NCBI GenBank assembly: GCA_050260455.1
Contig: JBLNCF010000017.1
Coordinates: forward strand, 639 to 64,638
Length of the DNA: 64,000 bases
Direction of reading: 5' to 3'
Origin: Bacillota bacterium
GTDB lineage: Bacteria; Patescibacteriota; Minisyncoccia; Phycocordibacterales; Phycocordibacteraceae
Below the pieces are notes generated by a model, which was not told where the DNA came from, did not search any database, and was given only the letters and a program-made list of their open reading frames with translations. Made by a program: the position numbers and the translations under genes. Every line of letters starts with the position of its first letter. Position 1 is the first letter of the stretch. Shown piece after piece: positions 7,767-32,938 of this stretch.

Positions 7767-8849
7767 ATGGATTCGTTCAAACGCCTTCTCGCCTGGGCGC
7801 AGCGCAATGAACGGCATTTAGGAGCGATCCTCTTTGTATTCGGTTTTGTTACCGATCTCTTCACGTTCGCATTCCTATCACCGTCCGTCGCAAATCTGGC
7901 CTTCATAGGCTACCTCTTGCTTGCCGCGTTCTGCACATTCGTAAGCTATGTCTATCCGGCCGGTTCAGGAAAGAGAATATGGATACGCGCGTTTTCAGTA
8001 ATTGCTCCGCTTGGAGCACAGTACGCCATCGGTAGCCTCCTATCGGGCTTTCTCATTTTCTACACTAAAAGTGCGGCTGTCATTGTGTCGTGGCCATTCC
8101 TTGTACTCCTTGCTGCGGTATTTATCGGCAACGAATATTTCCGTACGTACTACAAACATCTAGCGTTTCAGCTAGTGCTCTTCTTCTTTGCGCTGTATGC
8201 GTACTCCATTTTCGCTCTTCCCATCCTTCTGCAACGGCTTGGCCCTATCATCTTTCTTTCTTCGACCGCGATAAGTGGCGTGGTCTTCAGCTCCTTTCTC
8301 CTGCTTATCTCAAGGATTCGTCGATCCGGTTTCGCTCGAACCCTGCGATATGTCATCCCGGCAACGGGTATGGTGATTGCGCTCATGACGGTAAGTTATT
8401 TCACCGGCCTCATTCCTCCTATCCCGCTCTCGCTTGCGGCCGGTGGTGTCTACCACTCGATTGAACACCGTGATGGTGCATACGTCGTTACCGCAGAAGC
8501 GCCCAAACCATGGTGGGATCCACGCCCAGAAGTTGTGCATCATGTGTCGGGGACGCCATTGTATGCCTTTAGTTCAGTCACGGCGCCATTCTCTTTCGAT
8601 GCATCGGTGGTGCATGTATGGGAACGATATGATCCCACGCAGAAAAGGTGGGTCGAACGCACACGCGTAGCGTTTCTCATCACTGGCGGGCGTGATGGCG
8701 GATATCGCGGCTATTCAGAAGTACTGAATCCTGAAGCAGGGAAATGGCGGATCAGTATTGAAACCACGGGAGGTCAGGTTATCGGTCGCATCTACGTCAC
8801 GGTTGTCGAAAGCGAAACTCCTCCCGCAGTACGAGAGGAGTTTCGGTAG
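7767..8849 (+). CDS. Hypothetical polytopic membrane protein with C-terminal soluble domain
   Basis: ORF 7635..8849 trimmed to the first ATG after tRNA-Phe ('MDSFKRLLAWAQ'); about 7 TM helices then ~120-aa beta-rich C-terminal domain. Confidence 0.5.
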   Translation: MDSFKRLLAWAQRNERHLGAILFVFGFVTDLFTFAFLSPSVANLAFIGYLLLAAFCTFVSYVYPAGSGKRIWIRAFSVIAPLGAQYAIGSLLSGFLIFYTKSAAVIVSWPFLVLLAAVFIGNEYFRTYYKHLAFQLVLFFFALYAYSIFALPILLQRLGPIIFLSSTAISGVVFSSFLLLISRIRRSGFARTLRYVIPATGMVIALMTVSYFTGLIPPIPLSLAAGGVYHSIEHRDGAYVVTAEAPKPWWDPRPEVVHHVSGTPLYAFSSVTAPFSFDASVVHVWERYDPTQKRWVERTRVAFLITGGRDGGYRGYSEVLNPEAGKWRISIETTGGQVIGRIYVTVVESETPPAVREEFR

Positions 8850-8864: not shown

Positions 8865-9368
8865 CTAGCCTGCCTTCACGCGAAGCTTGGTCTGACGGCT
8901 CTTATCGAGCTTGGGCATCACGATGGTGAGCAATCCGTCCTTTGCGGTCGCGGTGGAGGCATCTACATCGATTTCCTGTGGGAGGAGCACGGTGCGTGCA
9001 AATGAGCCCCAGAAGAGTTCCTGGCTGAAGTAATCCGGACCAGTTACCTGATCACGCTCTTCGCGGGAGCCTTGAAGCTCCACCATGTCACGGCTTATCG
9101 AAACATTAAGCTCGTCAGGACGAACACCGGCAACAAATGCACGGATGACGATTTCGTTCGGAGTCTGATACACATCAACCGGAAGCTCGCCTTCTGCTGC
9201 GGGTTCATCATGTGTGATGTGGATGGGTTCCGGTGCGACCGGAGCATTCGGTACCATTTTGCGTACGGGCGCAGCCGGTGTCATGAGATCATCGTCAAAT
9301 GCATCGTAATCATCGGCGGGGAGGGCGCCGGCGAGTCGATCGAAGAAGGAGCGTTTCTTGGGAGGCAT
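8865..9368 (-). CDS. Small heat-shock protein, Hsp20/alpha-crystallin family
   Basis: Alpha-crystallin domain pattern ('VDVYQTPNEIVIRAFVAGVRPDELNVSI...GLLTIVMPK'). Confidence 0.85.
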   Translation of the reverse strand: MPPKKRSFFDRLAGALPADDYDAFDDDLMTPAAPVRKMVPNAPVAPEPIHITHDEPAAEGELPVDVYQTPNEIVIRAFVAGVRPDELNVSISRDMVELQGSREERDQVTGPDYFSQELFWGSFARTVLLPQEIDVDASTATAKDGLLTIVMPKLDKSRQTKLRVKAG

Positions 9369-9371
9369 AGG

Positions 9372-10097
9372 CTAGCAAGTATTTTTTGGTAAATGACGAT
9401 ACCGGAAGTATTTCAGTATCTCGAAGAGGGCAAGGAAGATGACGGCACCGCTCCATACGATGGAGAACGCCGTAAGCGTATGAGCGCCATCTCGCATGAT
9501 TATAAGGAAGTTGAAAACCGCGTGCAATCCGATCGCAAGGATAAGTCCGATCGCTGCAAACAGGGTGCGCATCGTGCGGTTAAGCTTTAGTGAAAACGCG
9601 AGAGCGAAACCAATTGCAGACGAGGAGATGACGTGCACGAGAGTGGAACCAATAAAGCGGAGATTCTCGGTAGCGATGCCCGCTGCGAGATGACCGTGTG
9701 CTAGAGGCTGCACTAGGAAGAGCATGTTCTCGACAGCGGCGAATCCGAGTGCAACCGTAATCATATACACCACGAGGTCGACCGATTCGTTTACCCATCT
9801 GCGCCAGAGTACGATGATGGCAGCGAGCGCATATTTAGCGATTTCCTCAATGGCTGCCCAGGCGGTAATAACGAGGGCACCGGGCGCAGGTTCGGTCGCG
9901 GGGAGCATGATGATCGCAAGGTGTTCAACCGGGAGGACGAGCGGGACTGCAAGCATGCCTGCGAAGAGGGCGAGCACAATCATGTGCTTAGGTTCCGGGC
10001 ATCGGGAATCTTCCTGGAGAAGGAAATACAGCCACACGAGCGCAGGCAGGAATCCTCCAAGGAAGGAGTACCCAAGGGTGGCGATCGAGAAAGGCAT
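9372..10097 (-). CDS. PrsW-family intramembrane glutamic protease
   Basis: Polytopic; conserved 'EEIAKY' (EExxK) and 'FAAVEN' motifs typical of the PrsW/CPBP fold. Confidence 0.65.
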   Translation of the reverse strand: MPFSIATLGYSFLGGFLPALVWLYFLLQEDSRCPEPKHMIVLALFAGMLAVPLVLPVEHLAIIMLPATEPAPGALVITAWAAIEEIAKYALAAIIVLWRRWVNESVDLVVYMITVALGFAAVENMLFLVQPLAHGHLAAGIATENLRFIGSTLVHVISSSAIGFALAFSLKLNRTMRTLFAAIGLILAIGLHAVFNFLIIMRDGAHTLTAFSIVWSGAVIFLALFEILKYFRYRHLPKNTC

Positions 10098-10112
10098 TAG
10101 CCTTATTTTACC

Positions 10113-12236
10113 CTATGCCTGAGGCCACGACTCCACCATGAGGAACTCGGACTGCTTGTGCGGATGCGCCTGGTAGATTTCTTCGGTAACGAAGGGCATG
10201 AAGGGGTGAAGGAGCTTCAGACAGTCTTTGAGAATAACAAGGAGAGCTGCGCGACGTGCCTGCTGTGCAGCTGGATCGCCTTCCTTGAATATCGTCTTGG
10301 ATTCCTCAAGAATCTCTGCGGCAAAGCGATCCCAGACGTAGTGATAAAGCTTCTCGGACGCGAGATGGAATCGGTAGTTATCCATGTCGCTGGTCACGTC
10401 GGTGACGACTGCATTGAATTCCGTCACAAGTTCGACATCCGTAGTAGCATCGGATTCCTGTGTCTCTCCTGCGTTGTCGAACACAAAGCGGGCCACGTTC
10501 CAAAGTTTATTAGCGAATTTCTTGTATGCCTCCACTTTCTTGGGGTCGAGATTAAGATCCGTGCCGGGTGTATTGCCCACAACGAGTCCCATGCGCAACG
10601 CGTCGGTCCCATAGAGTGCTGTCACCTCGAGCGGACTGATGACGTTGCCTTTGGACTTACTCATCTTCTGACCTTTTGCGTCACGTACAAGACCATGGAG
10701 ATAGACATTCTTGAACGGCACTTCGCCGGTGCGATAGAGACCGAGCATCGTCATGCGCACCACCCAAAAGAAAAGAATGTCTGCACCTGTCTCCATGACA
10801 GAGGTAGGGTAGAAGGTCTTGAAATCAGGATTCTCGGGGTACCCGAGCGTTGCAAACGGCCACTGTCCTGAAGAGAACCAGGTATCAAAAGTATCAGGGT
10901 CGGGACGAACAGCTCCACCGCAATCGGAACAGGTGGTGATGGTGTCATTGAGATCCACAAAGCCCGTATTACAGGAGTCGCAAAGCTTGGCAGGAATGGG
11001 AATACCCCAGGCGATCTGTCGGGAGATGTTCCAATCCTCAATATTTGAAAGCCAGTGAAGTGCAATGCGTTTGTGGCTCTCTGTGAGTATACGCACCTCG
11101 TCCTTTTCAATAGCTTCTGCTGCAGGCTTTGCAAGCGGTTCCATCTTCACGAACCACTGATCACGGATCTGCGGCTCAATAAGGGTGCTGCACTTGTAGC
11201 AGAGTTGCACCGAGTGCGTGTAGTTTTCATCGGTTCGCACAAGGAGCCCCTTCTCCGCGAGCTTCTCAATGATCTTGGGTCGCGCCTCAAGAATCTTCAT
11301 GCCTTCAAATTCACCGGCAATGGGGAGCAATTTACCGCGGTCATCAATGACCTGTTCGTATTCAAGATGGTGACGCTTGGCGATCTCGAAGTCAGTCTTG
11401 TCATGCCATGGAGTGATCGTCATCACACCAGTTCCCGCCTCCATGTCGACCGCCTCGTCCTTGATGACTGTTGCGGTTACGGGTCCGTTGATCCATTCGA
11501 GTTCCAGTGTGTCGCCCTCCTGGTACTCCGCATACCGAGGGTCATCAGGATGCATCACCACGTACTTGTCACCGAACTTCGTTTCAGGACGAGAGGTACT
11601 GATAACGAACGGGCCGTACTGGAGGTACCAGTACGGTTCCGTGCGTTCGACGTATTCCGTCTCGAGATTGGAAAGGGAAGTCTGATGCTTGGGGCACCAG
11701 TTCACAATACGCGGTGCACGATAGAGGAGACCGTCCTCATCAAGCTTCTTGAATGTCGCGTACACCACTTCAATGATCTCGGGATCGAGCGTGAACTTCT
11801 CACGCGACCAGTCGCAGGAGGCACCCAGCTGGCGAAGCTGCCCTTCCATGAAAGACTTGTTTGCGAGCGTGAAATCCATGATTTCCTGATAGAGCTCTTC
11901 TCGCGTCATTTGGAAACGCGAACGGCCTTCCTTTTCGAGTTTCTTTTCATACACCACCTGGGTCTCAAAGCCTGCATGATCGGCGCCTGGAAGCCAGAGC
12001 GCTTTCTTGCCGCGCATGCGTGCATAGCGAGTCATGATGTCCTCAAGCGTGACGAAGAGGGCATGTCCGGCATGGAGGCTGCCGTTGGCGTTCGGAGGCG
12101 GCATGATGATGGTGAACGGTTCGGTACGATCTCCCGGCAGGTTATCCGGGTTGAAATATCCGCTCTTCTCCCAGGCCTCGTAGATGCGTGACTCGGTAGC
12201 TGCCGGGTCGTACGGCTTCAAGAATTTATCATCCAT
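10113..12236 (-). CDS. valS: Valyl-tRNA synthetase (short form lacking C-terminal coiled-coil)
   Basis: Class I motifs 'PPPNANGSLHAGHA' (HIGH) and 'KMSKSKGN' (KMSKS); 'TFDTWFSS' ValRS-type editing motif. ORF trimmed to Met 'MDDKFLKPYDP' at 12236; the 38 upstream codons are likely spurious. Confidence 0.85.
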   Translation of the reverse strand: MDDKFLKPYDPAATESRIYEAWEKSGYFNPDNLPGDRTEPFTIIMPPPNANGSLHAGHALFVTLEDIMTRYARMRGKKALWLPGADHAGFETQVVYEKKLEKEGRSRFQMTREELYQEIMDFTLANKSFMEGQLRQLGASCDWSREKFTLDPEIIEVVYATFKKLDEDGLLYRAPRIVNWCPKHQTSLSNLETEYVERTEPYWYLQYGPFVISTSRPETKFGDKYVVMHPDDPRYAEYQEGDTLELEWINGPVTATVIKDEAVDMEAGTGVMTITPWHDKTDFEIAKRHHLEYEQVIDDRGKLLPIAGEFEGMKILEARPKIIEKLAEKGLLVRTDENYTHSVQLCYKCSTLIEPQIRDQWFVKMEPLAKPAAEAIEKDEVRILTESHKRIALHWLSNIEDWNISRQIAWGIPIPAKLCDSCNTGFVDLNDTITTCSDCGGAVRPDPDTFDTWFSSGQWPFATLGYPENPDFKTFYPTSVMETGADILFFWVVRMTMLGLYRTGEVPFKNVYLHGLVRDAKGQKMSKSKGNVISPLEVTALYGTDALRMGLVVGNTPGTDLNLDPKKVEAYKKFANKLWNVARFVFDNAGETQESDATTDVELVTEFNAVVTDVTSDMDNYRFHLASEKLYHYVWDRFAAEILEESKTIFKEGDPAAQQARRAALLVILKDCLKLLHPFMPFVTEEIYQAHPHKQSEFLMVESWPQA

Positions 12237-12296
12237 GAATAGCGAAACTATACCAGGAATCGGCGAAATTGCTCGCCCTAACGGAGGAGGGGCACC

Positions 12297-12794
12297 GTGC
12301 ACCGCAACCATTACGATGAATACGATGAAATCGATTTGGGTGGCGGGCACATCCTTGAAGTGCGTGGCAGGGTGACCCTCTGCTCCGGTCGTCTGACCAG
12401 TGTCCCGCTTACATTCTTCACCGAGGATCCCGAGGTGGATTCAAGCGAAGCATACCTCGGGATGCTTCTCTCCCGTCCCGGTCACGGGGAGGTTAAACGG
12501 GACACCAAAGCAGAGGCGGGATTCGCCGACGCAGCGTTCTTCGCCGATGGGTGCGAAGTGTATCGCATGCTCGATCGAGCTCGTTTCATCGAACCATGGA
12601 TGATCGGAGAACTTATCTATTCCCAGTGGAGCCTGTCACCGCGTCCGTTGCTCGTCGACCTACCCAACTGGTTCTATCTGGAAGAAGGGCTGGTGTCGGT
12701 CGCGATGCGAAGCGACAAGAAATGGGGTACGGATATCAGGGCGAAAGAAGAAACGATATTCCTCCCCGGGTCACGTCTCTTCGTAGCGCTCTAG
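12297..12794 (+). CDS. Hypothetical protein
   Basis: 165-aa ORF in the gap between divergent valS and tsaD; no recognisable motif. Confidence 0.3.
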   Translation: MHRNHYDEYDEIDLGGGHILEVRGRVTLCSGRLTSVPLTFFTEDPEVDSSEAYLGMLLSRPGHGEVKRDTKAEAGFADAAFFADGCEVYRMLDRARFIEPWMIGELIYSQWSLSPRPLLVDLPNWFYLEEGLVSVAMRSDKKWGTDIRAKEETIFLPGSRLFVAL

Positions 12795-12832
12795 TATCCA
12801 ACTCCCGTAGTCCTCGAGACTGCGGGATATTT

Positions 12833-14011
12833 TTATGCGAGCGAGAGATTGCCGTTGGCGCGAAGTGTCTCTAGGTCTGCGTGTTCTCCACGCAGCATGC
12901 GGTAGAAACCAGCCAGGCCGATCATAACGGCATTGTCGGTCGTAAACTCTCCTGCTGGGATATGGAGCGCAACCTCAGGATGGTTCCGCTCTATCTCTTC
13001 GGTGAATACTCGTCGAATATGGGTGTTGGCCGATACACCGCCGCCGAGCGCCAGTGTTTTTGCACCTGTCATTTCAATAGCCCGAGAAGACTTTGACCAG
13101 AGCACCTCAGCGACCGCGTCCTCGAACTCACGCGCAAGCTGCTCCTTTTCCACTTCAGAAAGGGAACCGCGTTCTTTAAGAAGGTAGAGTACGGCAGTCT
13201 TAAGACCGCTGAAAGAGAAATCGCACGTACTGTCGCCGAGCATAGGACGAGGTAGTGAGAATGGCATCGTGGAAAAGTCCTCTCGATCGCGTTCGGCCAG
13301 TTTCGATATTTCGGGACCACCCGGGTAGGGAAGATCCATCATGCGCGCCACCTTATCAAATGCCTCACCCACGGCGTCGTCGCGCGTCTGCCCCACAAGT
13401 TCATAGGAGAGCCACTCGTTCATGGCGACAAGTTCTGTGTGGCCACCGGAAATAAGAAGACCGAGTACTGGCATACCTACGTGCTCTATGACGATATCGT
13501 CGCCACCTGTACGTTCGGCGAGGGCGGAGAGCAAATGTCCCTCCATGTGATTTACCGCGATAAGCGGTTTCTCCCATACTACAGAGAGTGCTTTGGCGAA
13601 ATTGATACCCACCCAGAGTGCAGGCTCAAGCCCGGGTCCCGCGGTGACGGCAATGGCGTCGATGTCCGGTCGTGCCATCTGCGAGAGCGAAGCGAAGAAT
13701 GCCTCGTCGAGTTCAGGCTCGCGTTCAAGAAGTGTGCTGATACGAGTGGTGAGTTCTTCGGGGAATGCCTGCGTGTCTTCTTTGAGGAGTTCGGCTTCAG
13801 AGAGTGCGGCCTCAAGCAAGGGAACAAGGTTCTTTGCATGCTCGCGCTTCGCGAGTGCAGGAAAGACGCCACCGTATTCGCGATGGATCTCTATCTGTGA
13901 CAAGAGTGCATTACCCAGTATTCGGAAGCGGGCGGACTCTTCGGTACCTTCCGCTTCAATGACCGCAATAGCGGTCTCATCGCACGATGTCTCAATCGAG
14001 AGGAGTCGCAT
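12833..14011 (-). CDS. tsaD: tRNA N6-adenosine threonylcarbamoyltransferase TsaD (Kae1/Gcp)
   Basis: 'MRLLSIETSCDETAIAV' N-terminus and 'GGGVSAN' C-terminal motif; trimmed from ORF 12833..14104 to the canonical Met. Confidence 0.85.
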   Translation of the reverse strand: MRLLSIETSCDETAIAVIEAEGTEESARFRILGNALLSQIEIHREYGGVFPALAKREHAKNLVPLLEAALSEAELLKEDTQAFPEELTTRISTLLEREPELDEAFFASLSQMARPDIDAIAVTAGPGLEPALWVGINFAKALSVVWEKPLIAVNHMEGHLLSALAERTGGDDIVIEHVGMPVLGLLISGGHTELVAMNEWLSYELVGQTRDDAVGEAFDKVARMMDLPYPGGPEISKLAERDREDFSTMPFSLPRPMLGDSTCDFSFSGLKTAVLYLLKERGSLSEVEKEQLAREFEDAVAEVLWSKSSRAIEMTGAKTLALGGGVSANTHIRRVFTEEIERNHPEVALHIPAGEFTTDNAVMIGLAGFYRMLRGEHADLETLRANGNLSLA

Positions 14012-14849
14012 CGTCAGGAATGGTCGTCCAAGGGAATGGACCGTCGCGAGGAATGAGGAACCCTGCCGCATTGGGGTGCCCATTGCCGCCGTACTTCTGT
14101 GCAATCTTTGCTACATCGATGGAACCGTCACCGCGTATGGACATGCCATAGCCGTCTGGGTGTGCGGACGCGACGAGCGCAAATGGTCCATGTTTCTTAG
14201 CCAGAAGATTGCCGACCAGAGACTTCATCGTCGAATGTGTTGAAGCAAAATATATTTCGTATCCTTCAAAGGATACGAGCTTCGCATGATCGGCTGACAT
14301 GTTTGCGAGAAGCTCAAAGTATTCACGATATGCCTTTGCACGCGAGAGAATGGAAGCGAGCTCTTCAGGAGAGTCCAGTTTCTGTGCTATCGCATCCCAC
14401 GTTGCGAAATCTTGCGGTTGAACTTCAAGATAGGTGATGACTGCTTTTGTGTCTGGAAGAGTGTAGGTAAAGAGATCGTCATCTTGCACGTGCTCAAGAA
14501 GTTTGGGGAGAGGGGTTCCTGGATGGAAGTATTCCCAGGCAATACCGGAGCCCGAGCGTACCGTGTCATAGACGTATTCCGGCATGTTCTTGATCACGTC
14601 CTCCATACCCTCATGGTGGTCGAGCATTGTGAGGGAGGCGGCCGCCTCAACGAAGCGATCCATGATGTCCTGCGGATAGCAAAAATCAACAAAGTATAGG
14701 TTTGCTCCGCGACAGTGTTCCACCGGCGGTTCTTTGGCACGAGATAAAGGAAGGTACTCGACCGAGTCGCCCAATTTCTTCCACGCGGCATACGCGCCAC
14801 CGAACCCGTCCGGGCAGCCTCCGTGATACAGGACTATAGTGCGTTCCAT
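13992..14849 (-). CDS. DHH/DHHA1 phosphoesterase (NrnA-like nanoRNase / pAp phosphatase family)
   Basis: 'DHH' motif ('MLDHHEG') and DHHA1 'GGNGHPNAAGF'; trimmed to Met 'MERTIVLYHGG'. The N-terminal 47 codons of the ORF are low-complexity. Confidence 0.75.
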   Translation of the reverse strand: MERTIVLYHGGCPDGFGGAYAAWKKLGDSVEYLPLSRAKEPPVEHCRGANLYFVDFCYPQDIMDRFVEAAASLTMLDHHEGMEDVIKNMPEYVYDTVRSGSGIAWEYFHPGTPLPKLLEHVQDDDLFTYTLPDTKAVITYLEVQPQDFATWDAIAQKLDSPEELASILSRAKAYREYFELLANMSADHAKLVSFEGYEIYFASTHSTMKSLVGNLLAKKHGPFALVASAHPDGYGMSIRGDGSIDVAKIAQKYGGNGHPNAAGFLIPRDGPFPWTTIPDDATPLD

Positions 14850-17182: not shown

Positions 17183-17634
17183 AGGGTGGATACAGAAAGC
17201 CGCGACGGTACATCGCGGCAACACTGGATAGTATGTTTGTGCTCGTTTACGAGGGCACGCTCGCGAGTCGAGTTTCTTGTTTAAGGCGGAAGAAACCCTC
17301 ACCCTCAAAACCTCTCGCCGTTTTTGCCAGGGGAAGGCCCTGGCCCCCTTTCGGCCTTGACCTACACTCCCTATTCCCAAGCCAGTGCCTTGTGAATAGG
17401 GCGGGTCGCGAAAGCTCTTTCCCAAGTCAAATCGTATCACCGCCGGGTGGATCAAATCAAATTGGGAACCCTGTTGGTCCCAGGCGTAATTCTATGTATG
17501 AAAAGCAATTCGGTGACCCAAATTAGTGGTAATTGGAACTCTCTCGTTTCAGAGCTTAATTCCTGGCTTATATTCGGCCGCTCTCTCGAACGAGAGCTGG
17601 AGCTCGTGTAAATACTGCCTTTAAGGACTAGAAA

Positions 17635-18282
17635 CTAAGGGCTATCAGTATCCGGCGGAAATTTATAATCGTTAATTTCACCTGCCACAAACCTGTCTAG
17701 GTATTCTTCCTTTTTGCGATCAAAGTACTGAATCTTTTCCATCGTGTGCTTGCCCTCACGGAGCGGTTCTTTTGTGTAGTTATCGAGAATATATCCGTGC
17801 CCCGGTTCTGGATTGAGCATAGTAAAGAGCTCCGACAGATCTTCTAGCAAAGATTCTACTTCATCATACTGAACTGGAAATCGTTGTAGAAGCTTACTTG
17901 GATCCGCAAGGTGCTCAGCGTTTAAATGTGCAAGCTGATGATCACGCAGACGAGCTATGCTGGTAATAACTCGCTCATGCTTTTTTAGTAATGTCTCTGC
18001 TCGCTCACGCCTAGACGGATCGGGATGATGTTTTAATAGTGCTTGAACCGAAATCACTTGACCGCGCTCGCTAAAGTTTGATTTCTCAAAACACTTTGCC
18101 AAACTTAAAAGCCACTCATTCTGTAGTGCTAGTAGGGTTGCACTCCAGAAGTAATTTGCTTTGTGATATATAGGCTCATAATCCTTATTTTGGAGAGACT
18201 TCCATGAATAGAAAGTGGCACTTGCGCCGAGGAGGTTGCTATATAGCTGGTCGAATCTTTTTTTATATTCATTAACTTCCAT
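17635..18282 (-). CDS. Uncharacterised 215-aa alpha-helical protein encoded immediately downstream of HerA in the island; possible HEPN-like (Rx5H) motif
   Basis: AT-rich like the SIR2/HerA genes; 9-bp gap to the HerA stop, same strand (likely co-transcribed). 'RLRDHQLAHLNAEH' contains an R-x5-H pattern. Confidence 0.55.
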   Translation of the reverse strand: MEVNEYKKRFDQLYSNLLGASATFYSWKSLQNKDYEPIYHKANYFWSATLLALQNEWLLSLAKCFEKSNFSERGQVISVQALLKHHPDPSRRERAETLLKKHERVITSIARLRDHQLAHLNAEHLADPSKLLQRFPVQYDEVESLLEDLSELFTMLNPEPGHGYILDNYTKEPLREGKHTMEKIQYFDRKKEEYLDRFVAGEINDYKFPPDTDSP

Positions 18283-18291
18283 TTTAATAAT

Positions 18292-20223
18292 CTAGTTAGT
18301 CACGTCCTCGTCTTTCCACTTCTCAGAAAGGGTCATTGTCTTGTTTCGGGGTTCGTACTTGGTCGGTATTTTGCCTATATCTACGACCACAGGCACCTGA
18401 GCAAGTAGTCCTGCAAGAATACAGGTACCGGTGGGCAAAATAGGAAGATACTCGAATGAGACTTTGTCTAGATAAGATATCGTCTTTTCGATCGCATAAA
18501 TATCGTTGTTATTTATGAGTCGATGAAGGAAGTAGTTATGCAACTGAGAAATAATGGTGGGAGAAATGTCCGCAGGACGCTGACTGGCAATAGTTAGGAA
18601 CACACCAAATTTGCGGCCTTCCTTGATTATTTCTTCGAAGGTCTCGAGGCGGTAGTCTTTCCATTGCTCGCTCTCTCGGTCAGAAGTGTCTGAGAGAATG
18701 TTGTGTGCCTCGTCAACAATGATGTTGAGATATGAGTTCCCATCTCTCAACTCTTTCTTCTCGTCGTAAAGATTCTTACAGAGCAGAAGGGGCAGGATTT
18801 TTCTGATATGAATATTTACATCTTTTAACGAAACGATGGTTAGATTTCTCTGATTGGTTTCCTCCTCCTGCTCCCCCTTCACAGCCACTACCTTGATCAG
18901 GTCCTTAACTTTCGTATCGAGACGCTTTAAAAGAGGTGAAATATGATCTCGATTAGAGTAGCCTTTGAAGATCTCATCGTAATACTTGATGATTATCTTT
19001 AGACGGATAAAGGCAATCTCATTTTCAGTAAATTCGAGTAGGTTGATTTGAGCTCTCACTGGCTCTGTGAAGTGGGTTGAGATATTCGCAGCACTGTAGC
19101 GATCATTTCCAACTACTCCATTAGCACGAACAAAGTAAGTGCCATTGGTGCTGTTGAAGTCCAGAGTGTTGTTTACAAGGCCCATGATTGTGTTTATTGG
19201 ACCCTCATCGTTTACGCTGGCCCTTAGATCAGAGAAAAGCTCAACAAAAATCCTTGCACCGAGGCTCTTGTCGTTTTTAGCTAGAACGTCCTCAACAAAA
19301 GAGGCAATTTTCTCGCGAAGGTTCGCGTTTGGTGAACCTGTAGTATCTACATTCTCGAAGATTTGCCTTGTGAAGCCACCTTCGAGCGCCCGCACCAAAA
19401 ATGGAGCTTGAGTCTTTTCAGTAGCCTCCAGGAAAACAGTCCAGAAACTGGCTTCGTTGAGAGCCTCTTTTGTTATGGGGTATTTATCTTTCCCAGTCGT
19501 TGCGCGGGTGGAGAGTTTATAGATTCGTTTGTGTTTTGACTCGACAATAATGTCGTCGGCTTCCTCGTCGTCTGCTGTGTATTCACCATTGAAGTCAATA
19601 AGGAAGAACTTAGCGTTTTGAAAGAACTTTGACTGATCTTTATAAAATTTGAAGAGCTCGTGATAGATCTTCGCAAGTGTATAGGATTTACCGCTTCCAG
19701 TATTACCAAAAATGCCTATATGGCTCGCGAAAAGACTATTGACTCCAACGCTGATGTCCTGACCCTTTTCCAGAGCCAGACGGCCAATTGCAATTGGATC
19801 ATCGTCTCCGCGAATGAAATTGTGCACCTCGTTAAACTCTCTATTAGGAAGGAGGTAGCATTCATTCCCTACAAGGGGGAGTTCCTTTATTCCTCTTTCG
19901 AATTGGTCTCCCTTAAAGAAACCGAGAAGGCTTACGGCAAGTATCCTATTGATACGTTCCTTCTCATTCACGTAATCCTTCTTTGAAAAGGTGGGATCTT
20001 CGCTAGTGAATTCACCTTCAACCTTGCCGATAATCTTCGTAAAGCCTTTGACGATTTTTATATAACCTCCAACAGAGATATTTTTGAGCAACTCACCCTT
20101 ATAAAGGAGGTGCGATGTGTTCTTGGTCTTATCGACTTTTATCTTAATGGTTCTGCCATCCACCGATACAACCTTACCTATCTTAAATATGGAGTCCTCG
20201 AGGATTTGGCTGTCGTTGCTCAT
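18292..20223 (-). CDS. herA: HerA-like ATPase (DUF87/HerA helicase family) of a SIR2-HerA defence system
   Basis: N-terminal HAS-barrel-like beta region, Walker A 'GIFGNTGSGKSYTLAKI', Walker B 'IIVDEAHNIL'; 643 aa. Start overlaps the upstream SIR2 gene stop by 4 nt. Confidence 0.8.
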   Translation of the reverse strand: MSNDSQILEDSIFKIGKVVSVDGRTIKIKVDKTKNTSHLLYKGELLKNISVGGYIKIVKGFTKIIGKVEGEFTSEDPTFSKKDYVNEKERINRILAVSLLGFFKGDQFERGIKELPLVGNECYLLPNREFNEVHNFIRGDDDPIAIGRLALEKGQDISVGVNSLFASHIGIFGNTGSGKSYTLAKIYHELFKFYKDQSKFFQNAKFFLIDFNGEYTADDEEADDIIVESKHKRIYKLSTRATTGKDKYPITKEALNEASFWTVFLEATEKTQAPFLVRALEGGFTRQIFENVDTTGSPNANLREKIASFVEDVLAKNDKSLGARIFVELFSDLRASVNDEGPINTIMGLVNNTLDFNSTNGTYFVRANGVVGNDRYSAANISTHFTEPVRAQINLLEFTENEIAFIRLKIIIKYYDEIFKGYSNRDHISPLLKRLDTKVKDLIKVVAVKGEQEEETNQRNLTIVSLKDVNIHIRKILPLLLCKNLYDEKKELRDGNSYLNIIVDEAHNILSDTSDRESEQWKDYRLETFEEIIKEGRKFGVFLTIASQRPADISPTIISQLHNYFLHRLINNNDIYAIEKTISYLDKVSFEYLPILPTGTCILAGLLAQVPVVVDIGKIPTKYEPRNKTMTLSEKWKDEDVTN

Positions 20224-21392
20224 ACGTGAGGCTTATTCCTCTCTTCGATCATCTTCAAAAGGCAGTCGAATATCTCAGTGTTTATATTCGCGAAATCGAA
20301 TTCATATTTATCACCCCCGCCGTCTTCTTCTGGTTTCTGCTCCGGTACAATAACTTTCACGTTGTCGTTCTTAATATGCGCGATATCAAGTTTCGCCTCA
20401 AAGTCAGCTTTTGATTTCGAGGAATGAGCAATTATGAGGACAGTAAGGGTTGGGTTCGAGTTTGCCGCTCGAAGCGTAATTTCGCGAATATGCTCATCAG
20501 CGAAAGAAAAGCCTAGAACAAAGAGAACGGTGTTTTCCTTTTCGAGCTCATTAGCGTACATGCGCAATAGCTCATAATGGATTTGGTTCAGGAGTGTAAG
20601 CTTAAATTTCTCCTTAGTCGGGTTAATGATAGGGAGTTCCTGGTACGAGCCAAGAAATTCCTCCGTTGTCGGAGAGAGGCGTTTTCTCGCAGTTGCAGTA
20701 GTAAGGTCCTGAAGAGATTGTCCAGGCGCGGCCGCCACGATCTCCGTGTAGCCATTAGCTTTCAGTTTGCTGACAATCCTAAGATCGGGACTGAACTTAA
20801 TCTTCTTCTCTCCATTTACCTCGCATACCTCCCAAGTAAGGGAGCCGTGCAACTTAAGAAGATTAAAGACCGGAATTTCTGAGGTGTTGTCGAAATGCAG
20901 GCTCTTTTGGAAAGTAGACTTTCTAAAATTACTCAAGTTGAAGATAGGCATAAATCGCCCATTGAAGCCATCGCTATATTCCAGGCCGAGTTCCTCGAGA
21001 GCTTTTTCGAAATAAATATCGATATTCGTCGTGAAGATGTTTACTTGCTTGTTTATTATTGAATTCTTTCGACTGAGGAGAATTGTGTTAATGACTTTAA
21101 GAAACTGCTTGTAGTTTTTAAGAACTTCCTCGGATGCAGGGTCGTCCTTCAGGATCTCTACGTTTTTGAAGACGATTTCCTCGCAATAGCGTTTATAGAG
21201 AGCGGCACGAATCAGCTTCTTCTTTGAATCTGCTAGATCGGAGCTATCGACTTGGCTAAGCAGATCCTCGATGTTGCCAAGAACTCTAAGGAACGGCATA
21301 GAAAGGCCCGACCCTATGAGGAAGTTAATGTTGCTGTCCTGGACAGTATCTTTAAGCGCCCCTATGTTCATAGGACCCTTGCCTGGTGCCAT
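20220..21392 (-). CDS. SIR2-like (SIR2_2 family) NAD-binding/NADase domain protein, partner of HerA
   Basis: SIR2_2 motifs 'NFLIGSGLS...PFL' (GAGxS Rossmann motif), 'FTTNIDIYFEKALEE' (TTNYD-like) and 'LLKLHGSLTW' (HGS); 390 aa. Confidence 0.75.
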   Translation of the reverse strand: MAPGKGPMNIGALKDTVQDSNINFLIGSGLSMPFLRVLGNIEDLLSQVDSSDLADSKKKLIRAALYKRYCEEIVFKNVEILKDDPASEEVLKNYKQFLKVINTILLSRKNSIINKQVNIFTTNIDIYFEKALEELGLEYSDGFNGRFMPIFNLSNFRKSTFQKSLHFDNTSEIPVFNLLKLHGSLTWEVCEVNGEKKIKFSPDLRIVSKLKANGYTEIVAAAPGQSLQDLTTATARKRLSPTTEEFLGSYQELPIINPTKEKFKLTLLNQIHYELLRMYANELEKENTVLFVLGFSFADEHIREITLRAANSNPTLTVLIIAHSSKSKADFEAKLDIAHIKNDNVKVIVPEQKPEEDGGGDKYEFDFANINTEIFDCLLKMIEERNKPHV

Positions 21393-21990
21393 ATCTTGGA
21401 TTATAGACCTTATCTCCTTAAGTCAATAGTTTAGCAAGCCCCACAAAGTAAAATAGTAGTTTTGCAAGGCCTAAAAGAGATAAGAGAAAATTTAGGAGCC
21501 TATAAAGTGCTCTCACATTGAACTAGGGGATATTGAACGGATTTGCAGATACTAGAAACGCCTAAATTCCAGCCCAAGAATAGGGCGATGAAAAATACCG
21601 TCCCAATTATTATCCACGCACCCAAACGCTCTCCAGAGCTCATCTTTGACTCGCTCATAGCAGATCTTGACTAGCCTGATAAAAAACCTCGTGTGGACAC
21701 AGAGAACCCGCCACGGGTCCCTGACCGAAGCCAGGCGTACAGGTTTCCCCATACGGCGATCAAGCACCCCCATGACGGGTTCTCTGTGCTTGATCGACTT
21801 TTCATGCCATGCCGTTGCCGGTTTAGGCATCGCCCTTGCTTGGGCCGGTATTCAGTTGTCTCCTAATGCTACTTCCTAACGACACCTCTCGCAATTGGGC
21901 TGGTATAATGATCTGAACAACCAAAGTGTAGGTAGGGGAGGCCCAAACCTTAGATCAAGTCTGAGCTTGAGATAAGACGGGCGAATCCCA

Positions 21991-22185
21991 ATGCTTACCC
22001 TCTCTCAGTTAAGAAAAATAGATCCGGCTCTAACTCATATATCGGATGAGGATCTTGAAGCTATTAGATCTGAGCTATACCAGATCGCTCGGCTAGCCTT
22101 TGATTTCAAATACAGAGAAGTTGATTCCAAAAATCTAATTGGGTTATTGGCACCGGAACCCGTTATGCCTAAGATTGAATCATGA
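21991..22185 (+). CDS. Small (64-aa) ORF translationally coupled to the serine recombinase; possible recombination-directionality/regulatory factor
   Basis: Stop overlaps the recombinase ATG (ATGA); preceded by a 'tataat' -10-like element at ~21913. Confidence 0.3.
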   Translation: MLTLSQLRKIDPALTHISDEDLEAIRSELYQIARLAFDFKYREVDSKNLIGLLAPEPVMPKIES

Positions 22186-23708
22186 AGCATATTGGCGAAC
22201 TAACAGGCGTCGTATACTGTCGAGTTTCATCGCAAGAGCAAGTAGCAGGCACAAGCCTTGCTATGCAGGAAAGGTCTTGTCGCGAATATGCTAGGAGAGA
22301 AGGTATTGAGGTGGTTGGCTGCTTCGTTGAAGAAGGTGAATCGGCAAAAACAGCAAACCGAACGGAGTTTCAAAAGGCGCTAGCGTTTTGCGCGGATAAA
22401 AAGAAACCTGTTGATTTTTTCATCGTACATAAACTTGATCGTTTCTCCAGAAACCAGGATGATCATGTTACAACTCAGGCCTTTCTAAGAAAATACGGGA
22501 CGAAGCTTAGATCAGTAACTGAGCAAATCGACGAGACTCCAATCGGCAAAATGATGGAGGGAGTTCTCGCCACATTTGCAGAATTTGATAATAACGTTCG
22601 CGCTGCTCGAAGTAAGAGTGGAATGCAAGAAAAAGCACGTAAAGGAATATGGGTCTGGATTGCCCCTCTCGGCTATAAAAGACTCGTAAAAGGCGGAAAT
22701 TTGGTCATAGACGAGGAAGCTGCTCCTTTTGTGCGCCTAGCTTTTGAGGAGTACTCAAAGGGTATTCATAGCTTTGAGTCGCTAGCGGATCACTTGTTTG
22801 AGAGAGGATTTCGCACCTCCAGTGGTAAGAAAATTTATAAACAACTTCTTGAGAAGATACTACGCAATCCGATTTATTACGGGAAGATCAAAGCCTTTGG
22901 TGAAGAAATTGATGGTGCGTTCCCATCGATTATCGATGAAAGACTTTTTTGGAAATGTCAGCCAGGAACAAAGAGCAAGTTTCGGCCAGGTAAGAGACTT
23001 AAAGAAAACTCAGATTTTCCTCTCAGGAGAATTGTTAAGTGTACAGAATGCGGCTCCTCGATTACAGGTAGCGCATCAACTGGACGCAAAGGAGTCAAAT
23101 ACCCTTATTACCATCATCACAAGCAAGGATGTTCTTTAGCCTCATTCGTCCCAAAAGAATCTTTTGAACAGAATTTCATTTCTTATTTGCAGGAACTCTC
23201 TCCAAACCCAGCTTATGAGAAGCTTTTTAGAGCAATTGTGATCGATACCTGGCAATCAAATTATCAAGAACTAGATAAGGAAAACGAGAAGGTCAGAAGA
23301 GAAATATCTGATTTGGAAGATGAGCGCCAAAGAGTATTTGATGCTCAGCGTTCTGGCGTTTACACAAATGAAGAGTTTTTGCAGCAAAAAGATCGTATCA
23401 ATAAAATAATCAACCAGAAGAAGTTTCTACTAGAGGAAAAACAAATTGAAGAATTCAATATGGAAGAAGCTTTAGACTACTGTTTCCGGTTTGTGGGTGA
23501 TAGCTCAAGAACCTGGATCGAGCTCGGAGAAGATCCGTCATTCCGTCTTAGATTCCAAAATCAGTTATTCCCAGAAAAACTTACGTACGATGGGCAAAAA
23601 TTTGGAACCACTAAAACATCCCTTATATACGAGCTAAGCCAGCCCTGTAATGACGATTCAACTAAATTGGTGACCCCACGGGGAATCGAACCCCGATTTA
23701 CGCCGTGA
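22182..23708 (+). CDS. Large serine recombinase (resolvase catalytic domain + recombinase domain + zinc-ribbon + coiled-coil)
   Basis: N-terminal 'VVYCRVSSQEQ' catalytic-serine motif and 'FIVHKLDRFSRN'; central recombinase domain; 'CTECGSSITGS' Cys-rich zinc ribbon; C-terminal coiled-coil. The last 41 nt overlap the antisense tRNA-Glu. Confidence 0.9.
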   Translation: MKHIGELTGVVYCRVSSQEQVAGTSLAMQERSCREYARREGIEVVGCFVEEGESAKTANRTEFQKALAFCADKKKPVDFFIVHKLDRFSRNQDDHVTTQAFLRKYGTKLRSVTEQIDETPIGKMMEGVLATFAEFDNNVRAARSKSGMQEKARKGIWVWIAPLGYKRLVKGGNLVIDEEAAPFVRLAFEEYSKGIHSFESLADHLFERGFRTSSGKKIYKQLLEKILRNPIYYGKIKAFGEEIDGAFPSIIDERLFWKCQPGTKSKFRPGKRLKENSDFPLRRIVKCTECGSSITGSASTGRKGVKYPYYHHHKQGCSLASFVPKESFEQNFISYLQELSPNPAYEKLFRAIVIDTWQSNYQELDKENEKVRREISDLEDERQRVFDAQRSGVYTNEEFLQQKDRINKIINQKKFLLEEKQIEEFNMEEALDYCFRFVGDSSRTWIELGEDPSFRLRFQNQLFPEKLTYDGQKFGTTKTSLIYELSQPCNDDSTKLVTPRGIEPRFTP

Positions 23709-23950: not shown

Positions 23951-24418
23951 TTAGGTAGTGCGCTTACGCTGTAGGTAGGTGATGCCTGCGAGCGCGGCGA
24001 GTCCCGAGAGAAGGAGGACAGCCAGTGTTTCTGCTGCGTTACCTCCAGCTCCGGTATTCGGTACGCCTACCGTCGAGGCTCCGAGCACCGAACCGGGATA
24101 GGTGGTGGTCGTAGGATTGTTGCTGGTGGATGCTCCGAGGACGGAACCGCCACCACCGCCTCCTCCACCTCCACCGCCCCCACCACCTCCACCAGAGGAG
24201 CCGCCTGAGACGGTGCCCGTGAGGGAACCGGTACTGCTTCCGCTAACGGTGCCGGTGAGCGTGCCGCTTGAGGAAGTGGAGACCGTTCCGGTCAGGGTGC
24301 TCGTGGAAGTGTTCGTGGCTGCGGAGCCTGCGGTGAGCGTTCCCGTGATCTCGGACGCGAACGCTGGCGTTGCGATAGCGAACGCAAGCAGTCCAGAAAC
24401 GAGAAGTCGAGTGTTCAT
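23951..24418 (-). CDS. Small secreted cell-wall-anchored (LPXTG-type 'VPNTG') repeat protein with poly-Gly tract
   Basis: Signal peptide. Four 'TLTGTVS' Thr/Ser-rich repeats and a 16-Gly run. C-terminal sorting signal 'VPNTG' + hydrophobic stretch + 'QRKRTT'. Confidence 0.6.
   Translation of the reverse strand: MNTRLLVSGLLAFAIATPAFASEITGTLTAGSAATNTSTSTLTGTVSTSSSGTLTGTVSGSSTGSLTGTVSGGSSGGGGGGGGGGGGGGGGSVLGASTSNNPTTTTYPGSVLGASTVGVPNTGAGGNAAETLAVLLLSGLAALAGITYLQRKRTT
24146..24193. repeat. Simple-sequence (GGN)16 tract encoding poly-glycine
   Basis: Uninterrupted run of 16 Gly codons ('ccaccaccgcctcctccacctccaccgccccc...' on the plus strand). Confidence 0.7.
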
Positions 24419-24457: not shown

Positions 24458-26122
24458 TTACGGGGTGGTCGAGGTTGCCGTCGACGGGATGGACTGTGCG
24501 CCGTACGTGGTGCTGTACGAACCATTCGGCGTGCCGCTTGGAACCTTCACCTGAATATCGACATCAACCTGCCGGCCGGGCGTCGTAGTAGACGTGTCGC
24601 CTGCGAGGTAGAGCCAATCTCCGTAGTCATTGTCCGTTGCGTAGACTGCGCTCGCGGTCGACGTAGCGTTTGTAGACTGCGAGGAGAAGATACGGATGTT
24701 GTTCGCTGCAGGAATGGTGCTTGAGCCTGACACGAAGTCAGAGAACTTCATGCGGAAGGCGTTTTCAAGATCAGGCACGGTGAGGTGCATGATCCATTCC
24801 CATCCATGCAGGAACGTGTCATCTGCCGTTGCATCGGTCTTGATGGCATCAATACCGGTCACCGCAAGCGGTGTTGAGGACGAAGTCGAGCTCGTCGTGA
24901 ATGTCTGGTCAGACGACGTGGTGGTGCCCACACCATTGGCCGCTACGATCTGGAAGTGATAGAGGGTCGCTTCCGTGAGATTCGTGAGCGTCACCGAATG
25001 AGTGGACGACGCGGTCGTGTCGAGCGTCGAGGACGAACCATAGCCAGTCGTCGTGCCGTACATGAGCTGCGTCGAGGAGGCGGTCGTGTTCCACGAGACC
25101 GTCGCCGTACTGGTGCCGATACCCGTTACCGAGATACCGCTAATGACCGGTGCACTCGGGGTCGAGCTGCCCGAGGTGGTCGTGAACGTCGCATCAGCGG
25201 AGGTGGTGGTACCTACCGCGTTTGCGGACGCTACCTGGAAGTGGTAGGTCGTCGACGCATCAAGGCCGGTGAGCGTCACCGAATGGGACGTAGACGCGGT
25301 CGTGTTTAGGGTCGAAGACGAGCCGTATCCTGCGGTAAGGCCATAGAAGACCTGCGACGATGCTGCCACATCCGTGTTCCAGGTCACCGTAGCGGTGGTG
25401 GAACCGATGTTAGTCACCGTCACTCCGCTCACTACCGGAGCAAGAAGTGCCCCAAGTGTAGTGAACGTATCATCGGTGGTCGTTGCGGTATTGTCCGAAG
25501 CATCCGTCGCCGAGATCTGGAAGTGATACAGCGTGGATGCGGTAAGACCAGTGATGGTTACGGAATGAGTCGTCGTTGCGCTTGATTCAAGCGTGGTTGA
25601 CGAACCATACCCGCTCGTGAGGCCGTAGGAGACCTGACCCTGCGTGGCTTCGTCCGTGGTCCAGCTGATGGTCGTGCTGGTAGCACTCGGCATCACCGAG
25701 ACATTCGAGATGACCGGAGCGGTCACATCGGCGGGCGTGAAGCTGAAGACCAGCAAGTTCGAGTTCTCGTTCTGCTTGTGCGGAGGATCGGAAGCTGCAG
25801 CGGAATTCTCCGGAACCGAGACAGAAACCGTCCCTGTTGCGGTCGGATTAAGATTGAAGCTGTAGCTTGCACCGCTTCCGGTGAAATCAGACACGGTTCC
25901 GTTTGATACCGAAAGATCAGAAGACGTGAAGCCCGTCACGGATGCTGAAAACGTTACGGTTACCGGAATCGAAGTTGCTGATGTGGTGGATGCCGTCGAG
26001 GAGGCGAGCAGTACCGACGGACCACCGGAATCCGCGAAGGCGATCGAAGACATGCCAATAGCGCTAAGCGCCACGGCCGCAGCGGTCACCGCGGATATAA
26101 TGCGTGGTTGTTTAAGTCTCAT
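24458..26122 (-). CDS. Secreted surface protein with three tandem FN3-like ~95-aa repeats
   Basis: Signal peptide. Repeats 'APV(I/V)SG(I/V)(S/T)V...T(V/I)(S/T)W(N/T)T...Y(G/T)...GYGSS(S/T)TL...H(S)VTLTGL...YHFQ(I/V)' x3, resembling FN3/PKD modules. Ser/Thr-rich linkers; distinct N- and C-terminal domains. Confidence 0.7.
   Translation of the reverse strand: MRLKQPRIISAVTAAAVALSAIGMSSIAFADSGGPSVLLASSTASTTSATSIPVTVTFSASVTGFTSSDLSVSNGTVSDFTGSGASYSFNLNPTATGTVSVSVPENSAAASDPPHKQNENSNLLVFSFTPADVTAPVISNVSVMPSATSTTISWTTDEATQGQVSYGLTSGYGSSTTLESSATTTHSVTITGLTASTLYHFQISATDASDNTATTTDDTFTTLGALLAPVVSGVTVTNIGSTTATVTWNTDVAASSQVFYGLTAGYGSSSTLNTTASTSHSVTLTGLDASTTYHFQVASANAVGTTTSADATFTTTSGSSTPSAPVISGISVTGIGTSTATVSWNTTASSTQLMYGTTTGYGSSSTLDTTASSTHSVTLTNLTEATLYHFQIVAANGVGTTTSSDQTFTTSSTSSSTPLAVTGIDAIKTDATADDTFLHGWEWIMHLTVPDLENAFRMKFSDFVSGSSTIPAANNIRIFSSQSTNATSTASAVYATDNDYGDWLYLAGDTSTTTPGRQVDVDIQVKVPSGTPNGSYSTTYGAQSIPSTATSTTP
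24850..25720. repeat. Three tandem ~290-bp imperfect DNA repeats (encode the FN3-like modules)
   Basis: Protein-level triplication mapped back to DNA; repeats share ~60-70% identity. Confidence 0.6.
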
Positions 26123-28080: not shown

Positions 28081-29004
28081 TTAATGAGCCATGAGCCACT
28101 GGTAGATGTCCTCCAGGGCTTTCACCGCGTTTCCTGCGGCGATGTTGTTCTGGTGATAAAGCTCATCGGTACAATCTCCGGCTGCCCAGATGCCCTCTAC
28201 GGACGTGTGCTGGTTTCGAGCGTCTGTCTTGATGCGGTTCACCTCATCCATGTCCACTACGCCCTTGGCGAAATCAGTGTTAGGCATCACGCCGATTTCG
28301 ACAAAAACACCAGTGACTGGGAGGGAAGTCTCTTCACCGGTATCGCGATGGGCAACTTTCATACCTGTGACGAACTTTTCACCGAGGACTTCCGTCGGCT
28401 CGGTCTTGTACAGCACAGTGAGCTTCGGGTTGGAGAGAAGCTTCTCGACGGTGATCGCATCGCCCTTTAGTTTGTCGTGACGGTGGATGAGTGTAACGCT
28501 CTTGCAGTACGCAAGAAGCTGAGCAGTGGTCTCAAGGCCGGCATTGCCGCCACCTACGACTGCGACATCCTGATCAGCAAACAAGGGACCATCGCAGGAC
28601 GCACAATAGGTCACCCCTTTGTTCTCAAAGGTGTCTGCACCCGGGACGTGCAGCTTCTTACGAGCTGCACCGGAGGCAATGAGTACGGCGCGTGCCATAA
28701 ATGATTTCCCGTCGCGGGTTAAGACCAAGAAGCCACCATCTGTCTTCTCTAACTTTTCTACGCGATCACCCTCAACCACTTCCACAATGTCTCCTTTATA
28801 TGCATCCAAATGTTCTCGGAATGCCTTCGCCATTTCAGCTCCCGGGATTTTCACCGTACCGATCCAGTTCTCAACTCCTTCGGAGACGGTGGATTGTCCC
28901 CCGATTTCTTCGGCGATAAGGACTGATTTCAAACGCTTGCGGGCTGCGTAGACGCCGGCAGAAATGCCGGCAGGACCACCGCCGATGATGATGAGGTCGT
29001 GCAT
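28081..29004 (-). CDS. trxB: Thioredoxin-disulfide reductase
   Basis: FAD motif 'IIIGGGPAGISAGVYAAR', redox 'CASC', NADPH motif 'VVGGGNAG'; 307 aa. Confidence 0.85.
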   Translation of the reverse strand: MHDLIIIGGGPAGISAGVYAARKRLKSVLIAEEIGGQSTVSEGVENWIGTVKIPGAEMAKAFREHLDAYKGDIVEVVEGDRVEKLEKTDGGFLVLTRDGKSFMARAVLIASGAARKKLHVPGADTFENKGVTYCASCDGPLFADQDVAVVGGGNAGLETTAQLLAYCKSVTLIHRHDKLKGDAITVEKLLSNPKLTVLYKTEPTEVLGEKFVTGMKVAHRDTGEETSLPVTGVFVEIGVMPNTDFAKGVVDMDEVNRIKTDARNQHTSVEGIWAAGDCTDELYHQNNIAAGNAVKALEDIYQWLMAH

Positions 29005-29064
29005 AGTGAGGCAAGTATAACAAAATCCCCGGCGCTTGGCCGGGGATTTTGTATTAGAAGATGA

Positions 29065-30351: not shown

Positions 30352-30444
30352 AGTAAAGAATTAAGCCGCCAATTTATGGTCGCTTCATGATACCAGGGCA
30401 CGCAATTACGCAAATATTGACAAGAACCGGATTCGTTTCGACGT

Positions 30445-31611: not shown

Positions 31612-31999
31612 TCGAGGTAGTTACATTAATAAAACGCTTGAGCAGCGCGCGTTCTTGTATATCCATTGTATCCCCGTGCACCACGCCCTTCAAATGTAGT
31701 AGACCGTGGATAAAGAGGAAGCCAATCATGGCTGTGGTGGAAAGGTCGTATGAAAACGCCTGACGTTTGGCGACTTCTGGGCAGATAATGATCTCACCAG
31801 ACTTAGGACCAACAACGTATGAGAGCACATTCGGGATGTAGTCTTTTCCACGCAGAGAGATATTCAGTGACTTCGCGCGTTTCTCTCCAGCAAATACGAG
31901 CGAGAGTTCCCAGCCGGGAAGAACGGCCTCAAGTGCTTTATCAAAAGGAAAATTCACCCGCGCAGAGCGAGTGAAGTTTCGTATCTCGAGTCGAGACAT
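31529..31999 (-). CDS. ybeY: rRNA maturation endoribonuclease YbeY
   Basis: Zinc motif 'HGLLHLKGVVHGD'. ORF 3' end overlaps the ftsA 5' end by 83 nt in another frame (see findings). Confidence 0.65.
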   Translation of the reverse strand: MSRLEIRNFTRSARVNFPFDKALEAVLPGWELSLVFAGEKRAKSLNISLRGKDYIPNVLSYVVGPKSGEIIICPEVAKRQAFSYDLSTTAMIGFLFIHGLLHLKGVVHGDTMDIQERALLKRFINVTTSNVPTHRNRNRYRNTPHENRGGRGGKRT

Positions 32000-32017
32000 T
32001 AGGAGGAGAAAGAGAAG

Positions 32018-32275: not shown

Positions 32276-32380
32276 GTAGGTAGGAGCATAGCATAACGGG
32301 GCTATTTTGGGCAACTGGTATGTAAAAAGCCGCCCCTTCCTTTCGGTCGGAGCGGCTGGAACTAGGTGCCGTTAGATGGT

Positions 32381-32845: not shown

Positions 32846-32938
32846 GGATCTCCCCGTAGTGAGCGTTGGAACCAACAGGTGAACTAGGAATATTATGTAC
32901 TAATCATAGTGAAAGTCAAGCCCCGCTTGAGGCGGGGC

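Follow-up and report, generated by a model that had tools for sequence, protein, structure and literature searches.

The window, by which we mean the whole 64-kb stretch of DNA analysed here, carries a gene for a protein of 215 amino acids directly behind the ATPase gene of a SIR2-HerA pair, and the question raised by this locus is what the protein does and whether it does so together with its neighbours. A first-pass annotation had described it as an accessory protein of HerA with a possible HEPN-like motif. The open reading frame reported there at 17635-18282 is confirmed; it begins with ATG and is encoded on the minus strand, which the annotation had left unstated. The gene and its candidate active site are as follows.

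17635..18282, minus strand: HEPN_AbiU2 gene, predicted RNase of 215 aa (open reading frame; PF18734 at 52.6 bits; AlphaFold2 pLDDT 95.8)
17926..17946, minus strand: codons of R113-D-H-Q-L-A-H119, the predicted HEPN catalytic R-x5-H motif (R113 and H119 invariant in alignments A1 and A2)

Membership of the HEPN_AbiU2 family

The earlier suggestion of an HEPN-like protein was based on an Arg followed by a His at R-x5-H spacing, and this string is indeed present: residues 111-124 of the protein read RLRDHQLAHLNAEH, within which R113-DHQLA-H119 forms the motif. By itself the motif is at chance level and is weak evidence for an HEPN domain: the 215-aa sequence has 12 Arg and 9 His, and an R-x4-6-H turns up at least once in 79% of its shuffles. 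The family-level evidence is of another kind. The protein matches the Pfam family HEPN_AbiU2 (PF18734) with an E-value of 5.1e-14 and 52.6 bits, about twice the gathering score of 26.8 bits, over residues 5-156 (profile positions 3-168 of 193). Among 5.8 billion clusters, 19 homologues with 51-70% identity were found, 17 of them with a precomputed PF18734 label. R113 and H119 are invariant across these 19 close homologues (alignment A1), at a spacing of x5, or of x4 in three homologues, which is inside the HEPN range. A profile search of 1.84 billion representative proteins yielded only 179 relatives at E<=1e-3, nearly all of them single-domain proteins of 170-260 aa. Metagenomes were scanned with alignment A1. 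An alignment of 65 full-length members reaching down to about 20% identity, with a mean column identity of 21% (alignment A2), has only two invariant columns, and these are again R113 and H119, so that the conservation of Arg and His across homologues, proposed earlier as a check, holds in both alignments. Based on the PF18734 match and the invariance of R113 and H119, the 215-aa protein is established by its sequence as a genuine member of HEPN_AbiU2 with a predicted R113-x5-H119 catalytic pair.

An AlphaFold2 model computed with the 65-sequence alignment (pLDDT 95.8, pTM 0.90) is all-helical with 12 helices, in agreement with the all-alpha prediction made from the sequence previously. Foldseek searches initiated with this model against the PDB and BFVD did not find any match below E 0.3, and sequence profile searches of the PDB with A1 and A2 retrieved spurious helical or designed proteins only. 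Hence the HEPN assignment stands at the level of the family and of the invariant pair, and the four-helix core is putative. PADLOC, NCBIfam and PHROGs gave no informative match for the protein, and a tblastn search of plasmid and phage records was negative.

A compact mobile element at tRNA-Glu

The GC content of the gene is 0.423 against 0.537 for the window, and that of the HerA, SIR2 and recombinase genes is 0.42-0.44, which bears out the island-like composition noted before. These genes lie together with the following features.

17512..17519, no strand: proposed distal boundary attL, GGTGACCC, an 8-nt copy of the tRNA-Glu 3' end (23669-23676), at the GC step; longer repeats occur elsewhere
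18292..20223, minus strand: HerA ATPase of SIR2-HerA, 643 aa (PADLOC PDLC04097, E 4e-176; Pfam DUF87)
20220..21392, minus strand: SIR2, predicted NADase effector of SIR2-HerA, 390 aa (PADLOC PDLC04080, E 5e-62; Pfam SIR2_2)
21720..21829, minus strand: LOOT RNA (Rfam RF03000), 68.4 bits against a gathering score of 46.4
21991..22185, plus strand: 64-aa open reading frame overlapping the start of the recombinase gene, 46% identical to a 73-aa open reading frame at the same position in L062
22182..23708, plus strand: large serine recombinase, 508 aa (Pfam Resolvase, Recombinase and Zn_ribbon_recom), 59% identical to that of L062
23668..23742, minus strand: tRNA-Glu(UUC), integration site and proximal boundary (ARAGORN and Rfam)

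The SIR2 and HerA genes overlap by 4 nt and, going by their profile matches, are a SIR2-HerA defence system. The LOOT RNA is on the same strand about 330 nt upstream of SIR2, the 64-aa open reading frame has no Pfam or PHROG match, and the 3' end of the recombinase gene overlaps the tRNA-Glu by 40 nt. The GC content is 0.42-0.46 from about 17520 to 23667, compared with 0.54-0.57 on either side. The left step, from 0.54 to 0.44, is at about 17460-17520, past the HEPN gene; because the step at about 17500 falls beyond the gene, the gene is inside the element. A low-GC element of about 6.15 kb (about 17520-23668) is inserted at the 3' end of tRNA-Glu(UUC), containing the serine recombinase, the 64-aa open reading frame, the LOOT RNA, SIR2, HerA and, as its last gene, HEPN_AbiU2. 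The 8-nt repeat coincides with the GC step and is the counterpart of longer tRNA-Glu 3'-end repeats seen at other HEPN islets. Taken alone it is at chance level, since chance would give about four such 8-mers in 9 kb, and three are seen; we propose it as an att site in a supportive role only.

A sister element, designated L062 (loci used for comparison are cited by such numbers), is present at tRNA-Glu(CUC). Its recombinase (507 aa, 59% identical to that of the window) also overlaps its own tRNA-Glu at the 3' end, and its SIR2 and HerA are each 71% identical to their counterparts. The order in L062 is tRNA-Glu, recombinase, small open reading frame, LOOT RNA, SIR2 and HerA, followed by genes for proteins of 150 aa and 183 aa. 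The backbone from tRNA-Glu through recombinase, small open reading frame, LOOT and SIR2 to HerA is thus kept.

Besides L062 (5359-5470), LOOT RNAs occur in the sister element L061 (4060-4178) and in L015 (3743-3871), L010 (4593-4717), L031 (4566-4687), L008 (4142-4263) and L048 (4269-4397). The matches score 56-81 bits against the gathering score of 46.4 and recur in mobile and defence regions of candidate-phyla-radiation (CPR) bacteria, where the RNA usually has a serine-recombinase or HTH module on one side and SIR2-HerA or other cargo on the other. A scan of the remaining 23 SIR2-HerA loci, which come nearly all from other phyla, and of the 10 other HEPN loci found no LOOT. The orphan LOOT RNA appears to be part of the backbone of these integrative elements.

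Some features adjoining the element are noted for completeness. Downstream of the HEPN gene there are 450 nt of non-coding DNA and then a convergent DUF4396 gene. The stretch between the DUF4396 gene and the element boundary (17183-17520) comprises 340 nt of GC-rich (0.54) non-coding DNA with a strong terminator-like hairpin at 17199-17219, and has no Rfam match even at E 0.1. At the other end, adjoining the tRNA pair, 23951-24418 (minus strand) encodes a protein of 155 aa that contains about 18 Gly in a row and a membrane anchor at the C-terminus. The product of 24458-26122 (minus strand) is a Thr/Ser-rich protein of 554 aa in which a unit of about 100 aa is repeated three times, and it has the look of a surface protein.

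Comparison of SIR2-HerA and HEPN loci

The HEPN start codon is 9 nt (ATTATTAAA) past the TAG stop codon of HerA on the same strand. Because no promoter-like or terminator-like site fits in this gap, the HEPN gene is very likely co-transcribed with SIR2-HerA, as the probable operon proposed in the first-pass annotation would have it. Such an arrangement, with no room for a promoter of its own, invites the explanation that SIR2-HerA has the HEPN protein here as a third functional component, a second effector recruited or activated by the HerA assembly, so that the system would cleave RNA as well as deplete NAD+. Scaffolding by HerA is known for the effector partners SIR2, DUF4297 and NurA. Also, of about 35 related loci, 11-12 have a gene tightly behind HerA, at -28 to +55 nt from its stop codon, and several of these genes are nuclease-like. 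Among the genes in this position are:

L012 7874-8659, L035 7893-8651 and L014 7925-9430: PD-(D/E)XK or Cas4-like genes
L009 8030-8626: DEDDh exonuclease
L013 7836-8354: 169-aa family with an RNNLFHG motif (UniRef name RiboL-PSP-HEPN; matches phrog_19013)
L015 7869-8468, L024 7848-8396, L025 7897-8580, L038 5499-6182 and L062 8926-9971: unknown genes

The comparison of loci, however, argues against a third component. We fetched 32 complete related SIR2-HerA loci from many phyla, with HerA 47-68% identical to that of the window; together with L062, and minus three with less than 700 nt of downstream flank, these make about 30 informative loci. Neither tblastn nor the family HMM run on all open reading frames detected an AbiU2 gene in any of the 32 loci, and the closest informative locus, L062 at 71% identity, does not carry one either: the 150-aa and 183-aa genes behind its HerA are not AbiU2 and are unrelated to the HEPN gene. 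In a blastn comparison of the window with L062, homology begins at the tRNA and continues as far as window position 18311, where it ceases at the end of HerA. Since homology stops there and different genes follow, the HEPN gene occupies a variable distal cargo position. Conversely, the close HEPN homologues (51-71% identity) all lack SIR2 and HerA. About ten loci with close AbiU2 homologues are without both genes, and neither was found within the fetched flanks of L001-L008 and L044-L057. The close homologues are solitary genes, mostly in CPR genomes (for example, Candidatus Zambryskibacteria) and amid housekeeping genes, and a search for a conserved neighbour, partner or antitoxin beside them found none. 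One homologue, in L008, is located in a defence island with a type III R-M system and an OLD-like gene. The description of the protein as an accessory of HerA is therefore not upheld by either set of loci, nor by the sister element, in which homology ends exactly where HerA does.

The genes behind HerA also belong to at least eight unrelated families, each sporadic, and several clearly represent different systems, among them a BsoBI R-M system and an AAA_15 ATPase. This variety looks like cargo turnover. An hhalign comparison of the AbiU2 family with the HEPN-like gene of L013 was not significant. We regard a third component as unlikely. A broader version of the idea, in which the place behind HerA is a dedicated slot for exchangeable co-effectors that are functionally coupled to the HerA assembly, could be filled by HEPN_AbiU2 here and by PD-(D/E)XK/Cas4-like, DEDDh and RiboL-PSP-HEPN-like proteins elsewhere; it would turn the locus into a three-component system attacking both NAD+ and RNA, and we give it little credence.

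Other observations on HerA-related loci are as follows. L040 (6001-6579), L041 (6001-6423) and L043 (6001-6504) match only the C-terminal 140-190 residues of HerA (69-87% identity) and have no SIR2 gene in the vicinity. They could be remnants left by truncation, or another architecture could have the HerA C-terminus in common. In the Legionellaceae locus L034, a RAGATH-13 ribozyme-like RNA (8377-8471) is present about 530 nt downstream of HerA. On the Flavivirga contig L017, group II intron pieces (50-125 and 4324-4445) flank the SIR2-HerA pair.

HEPN islets at tRNA genes and the origin of the locus

The HEPN gene is found just downstream of tRNA-Glu in L001, L006, L046, L052 and L055, and of tRNA-Gln in L051. 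Directly after tRNA-Glu, these loci have low-GC HEPN islets of 1.2-1.6 kb that lack an integrase:

L001, 7784-9310
L006, 7664-9060
L046, 7772-9030
L052, 4145-5730
L055, 861-2512

The tRNA-Glu islets are bounded by incomplete repeats of the tRNA 3' end (9-18 nt) that lie a few hundred nt past the gene; in L052 two tandem tRNA-end copies of 17-18 nt, 413 nt apart, precede the HEPN gene. The distal arms of the L001, L006 and L055 islets are similar to each other. In most loci the GC content of the HEPN gene is 6-15 points under that of the host surroundings. The gene alone matches between loci, the HEPN flanks of the window having no nucleotide homology to other loci.

The window shares more with L001, from Candidatus Zambryskibacteria, than the HEPN gene. 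Positions 8868-14110 and 28084-34653 are syntenic with L001 from TsaD to FtsZ, with TsaD, IleRS, PrsW and HSP20 in one part and TrxR, FtsZ and FtsA in the other, at 41-56% amino acid identity; the two differ by an inversion between tRNA-Ser and tRNA-Val. The name given to the source MAG at NCBI, 'Bacillota bacterium', is therefore probably mistaken, and an origin in CPR/Patescibacteria agrees better with these matches. The HEPN gene is in the same tRNA-Glu to tRNA-Val interval in both loci. This synteny, and the occurrence of tRNA-Ser(CGA)/tRNA-Glu(UUC) followed by the HEPN gene without the element in L001-L004, L046 and L052, would suit an alternative history in which the HEPN gene was resident at the tRNA-Ser/tRNA-Glu locus and the recombinase-SIR2-HerA element was later inserted between tRNA-Glu and the gene, their adjacency being accidental. 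Such an insertion should have left a displaced tRNA fragment and the old spacer of 80-870 nt in front of the gene, and we rank this history as decidedly improbable because only 9 nt separate HerA from the HEPN gene. The GC step and the tRNA-end repeat, moreover, are located beyond the HEPN gene at about 17500-17520. The identities point the same way: the HEPN proteins of the window and L001 are 64% identical, compared with the 41-56% of the flanking housekeeping proteins, and the gene is low in GC in both genomes, which argues for transfer rather than vertical descent. The pattern fits horizontal movement into a shared hot spot.

Proposed function

Based on the above, we propose, with a probability of roughly 0.7, that the protein is a HEPN RNase of the abortive-infection type that is autonomous and encoded by a single gene, and that the 6.15-kb serine-recombinase element at tRNA-Glu carries this gene as its variable distal cargo. 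By analogy with the HEPN superfamily, it would act alone as a metal-independent endoribonuclease using R113 and H119, and would probably be a homodimer with a composite active site. It would be kept inactive until phage infection and, once triggered, would cut host and/or phage RNA (tRNA, rRNA or mRNA), leading to a growth stop and abortive infection. SIR2-HerA and HEPN_AbiU2 would then be two independent suicide-type defences stacked in one mobile-element operon and not a three-component machine. Some points speak against this reading. A genuine operon partner would also be expected to lie as close to HerA as this gene does, at 9 nt, and the founder of the family, AbiUii of L. lactis, conferred no resistance and lowered the activity of AbiUi (PMC13064643).

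The behaviour of AbiUii is also compatible with the protein being a regulatory or housekeeping factor and no infection-triggered toxin, either a CPR RNA-processing enzyme or a modulator in the manner of AbiUii on AbiUi. Many homologues are indeed located amid housekeeping genes of small CPR genomes, without antitoxin or defence neighbours. A housekeeping role is, however, difficult to reconcile with the patchy distribution, the low GC and the tRNA islets with att-like repeats, with the position of the L008 homologue in a type III R-M/OLD island, or with the small size of the family, which is not universal in CPR bacteria. Furthermore, a solitary HEPN-AbiU2 integron cassette of Vibrio mimicus, HNPBCG_15845, is reported to protect against T4 and T7, and its protein to be a dimer (bioRxiv 10.64898/2026.03.17.712381). 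We consider a regulatory or housekeeping role highly improbable and retain the autonomous RNase as the preferred reading.

The HEPN protein itself belongs to a known family and will not surprise a specialist; the CPR defence element with its conserved LOOT RNA is more unusual. The locus adds a single-domain HEPN_AbiU2 subfamily from CPR bacteria that is catalytically intact as judged from its residues, the RNase activity of the family being a prediction, and the gene appears to move as small cargo at tRNA-Glu sites. It also cautions that tight operon adjacency to HerA need not mean functional partnership. Finally, the locus delimits a compact mobile element for defence, about 6 kb long, in which a serine recombinase and a LOOT RNA are combined with SIR2-HerA and a last gene that varies; such an element would be convenient to work with in experiments.

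Comparison with known systems

The SIR2-HerA (Nezha) system is the immediate upstream neighbour of the HEPN gene and probably shares a transcript with it. That system consists of SIR2 and HerA only, and no other sampled locus has the HEPN gene alongside it; we do not file the gene as a SIR2-HerA component because of this lack of co-occurrence.

The protein resembles the HEPN_AbiU2 family in its HMM match over residues 5-156, its predicted all-alpha structure, its length of about 200 aa and its conserved R-x4-5-H motif, and differs in having an extra conserved C-terminal helix (residues 167-199) beyond the Pfam match. AbiU2 is one of six Abi-derived HEPN families described by Anantharaman et al. 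2013 (PMC3710099), where it is known as a solo gene or beside or within R-M operons, and also in an operon with the gene of a Sel1-repeat protein (PMC3710099). The solo gene of the window, on mobile DNA, and its homologues near other defence genes are of the same kind. Compared with the founder AbiUii from L. lactis pND001, the 215-aa protein is very divergent and comes from CPR-type bacteria. Unlike the L. lactis AbiU system, in which AbiUi and AbiUii occur together, the window locus is without an AbiUi-like partner; PADLOC has no Abi match for the protein, and there is no Abi protein among the annotated neighbours, either here in the window or at the loci of the homologues.

With the HEPN-MNT type II/VII toxin-antitoxin toxins and the anticodon nucleases PrrC, RloC and DARNA, the protein is predicted to share R-x4-6-H RNase chemistry and the logic of growth arrest on infection. 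It differs from them in lacking an MNT gene, an ATPase or sensor domain, and linkage to an R-M system at this locus; the genes adjoining it are HerA upstream and the convergent DUF4396 gene downstream, neither of which is an MNT antitoxin gene. By description, HNPBCG_15845 is alike in being a single-gene HEPN_AbiU2 carried as exchangeable cargo of a site-specific recombination element. The carrier there is an integron cassette in a different phylum, whereas here it is a serine-recombinase element integrated at a tRNA gene.
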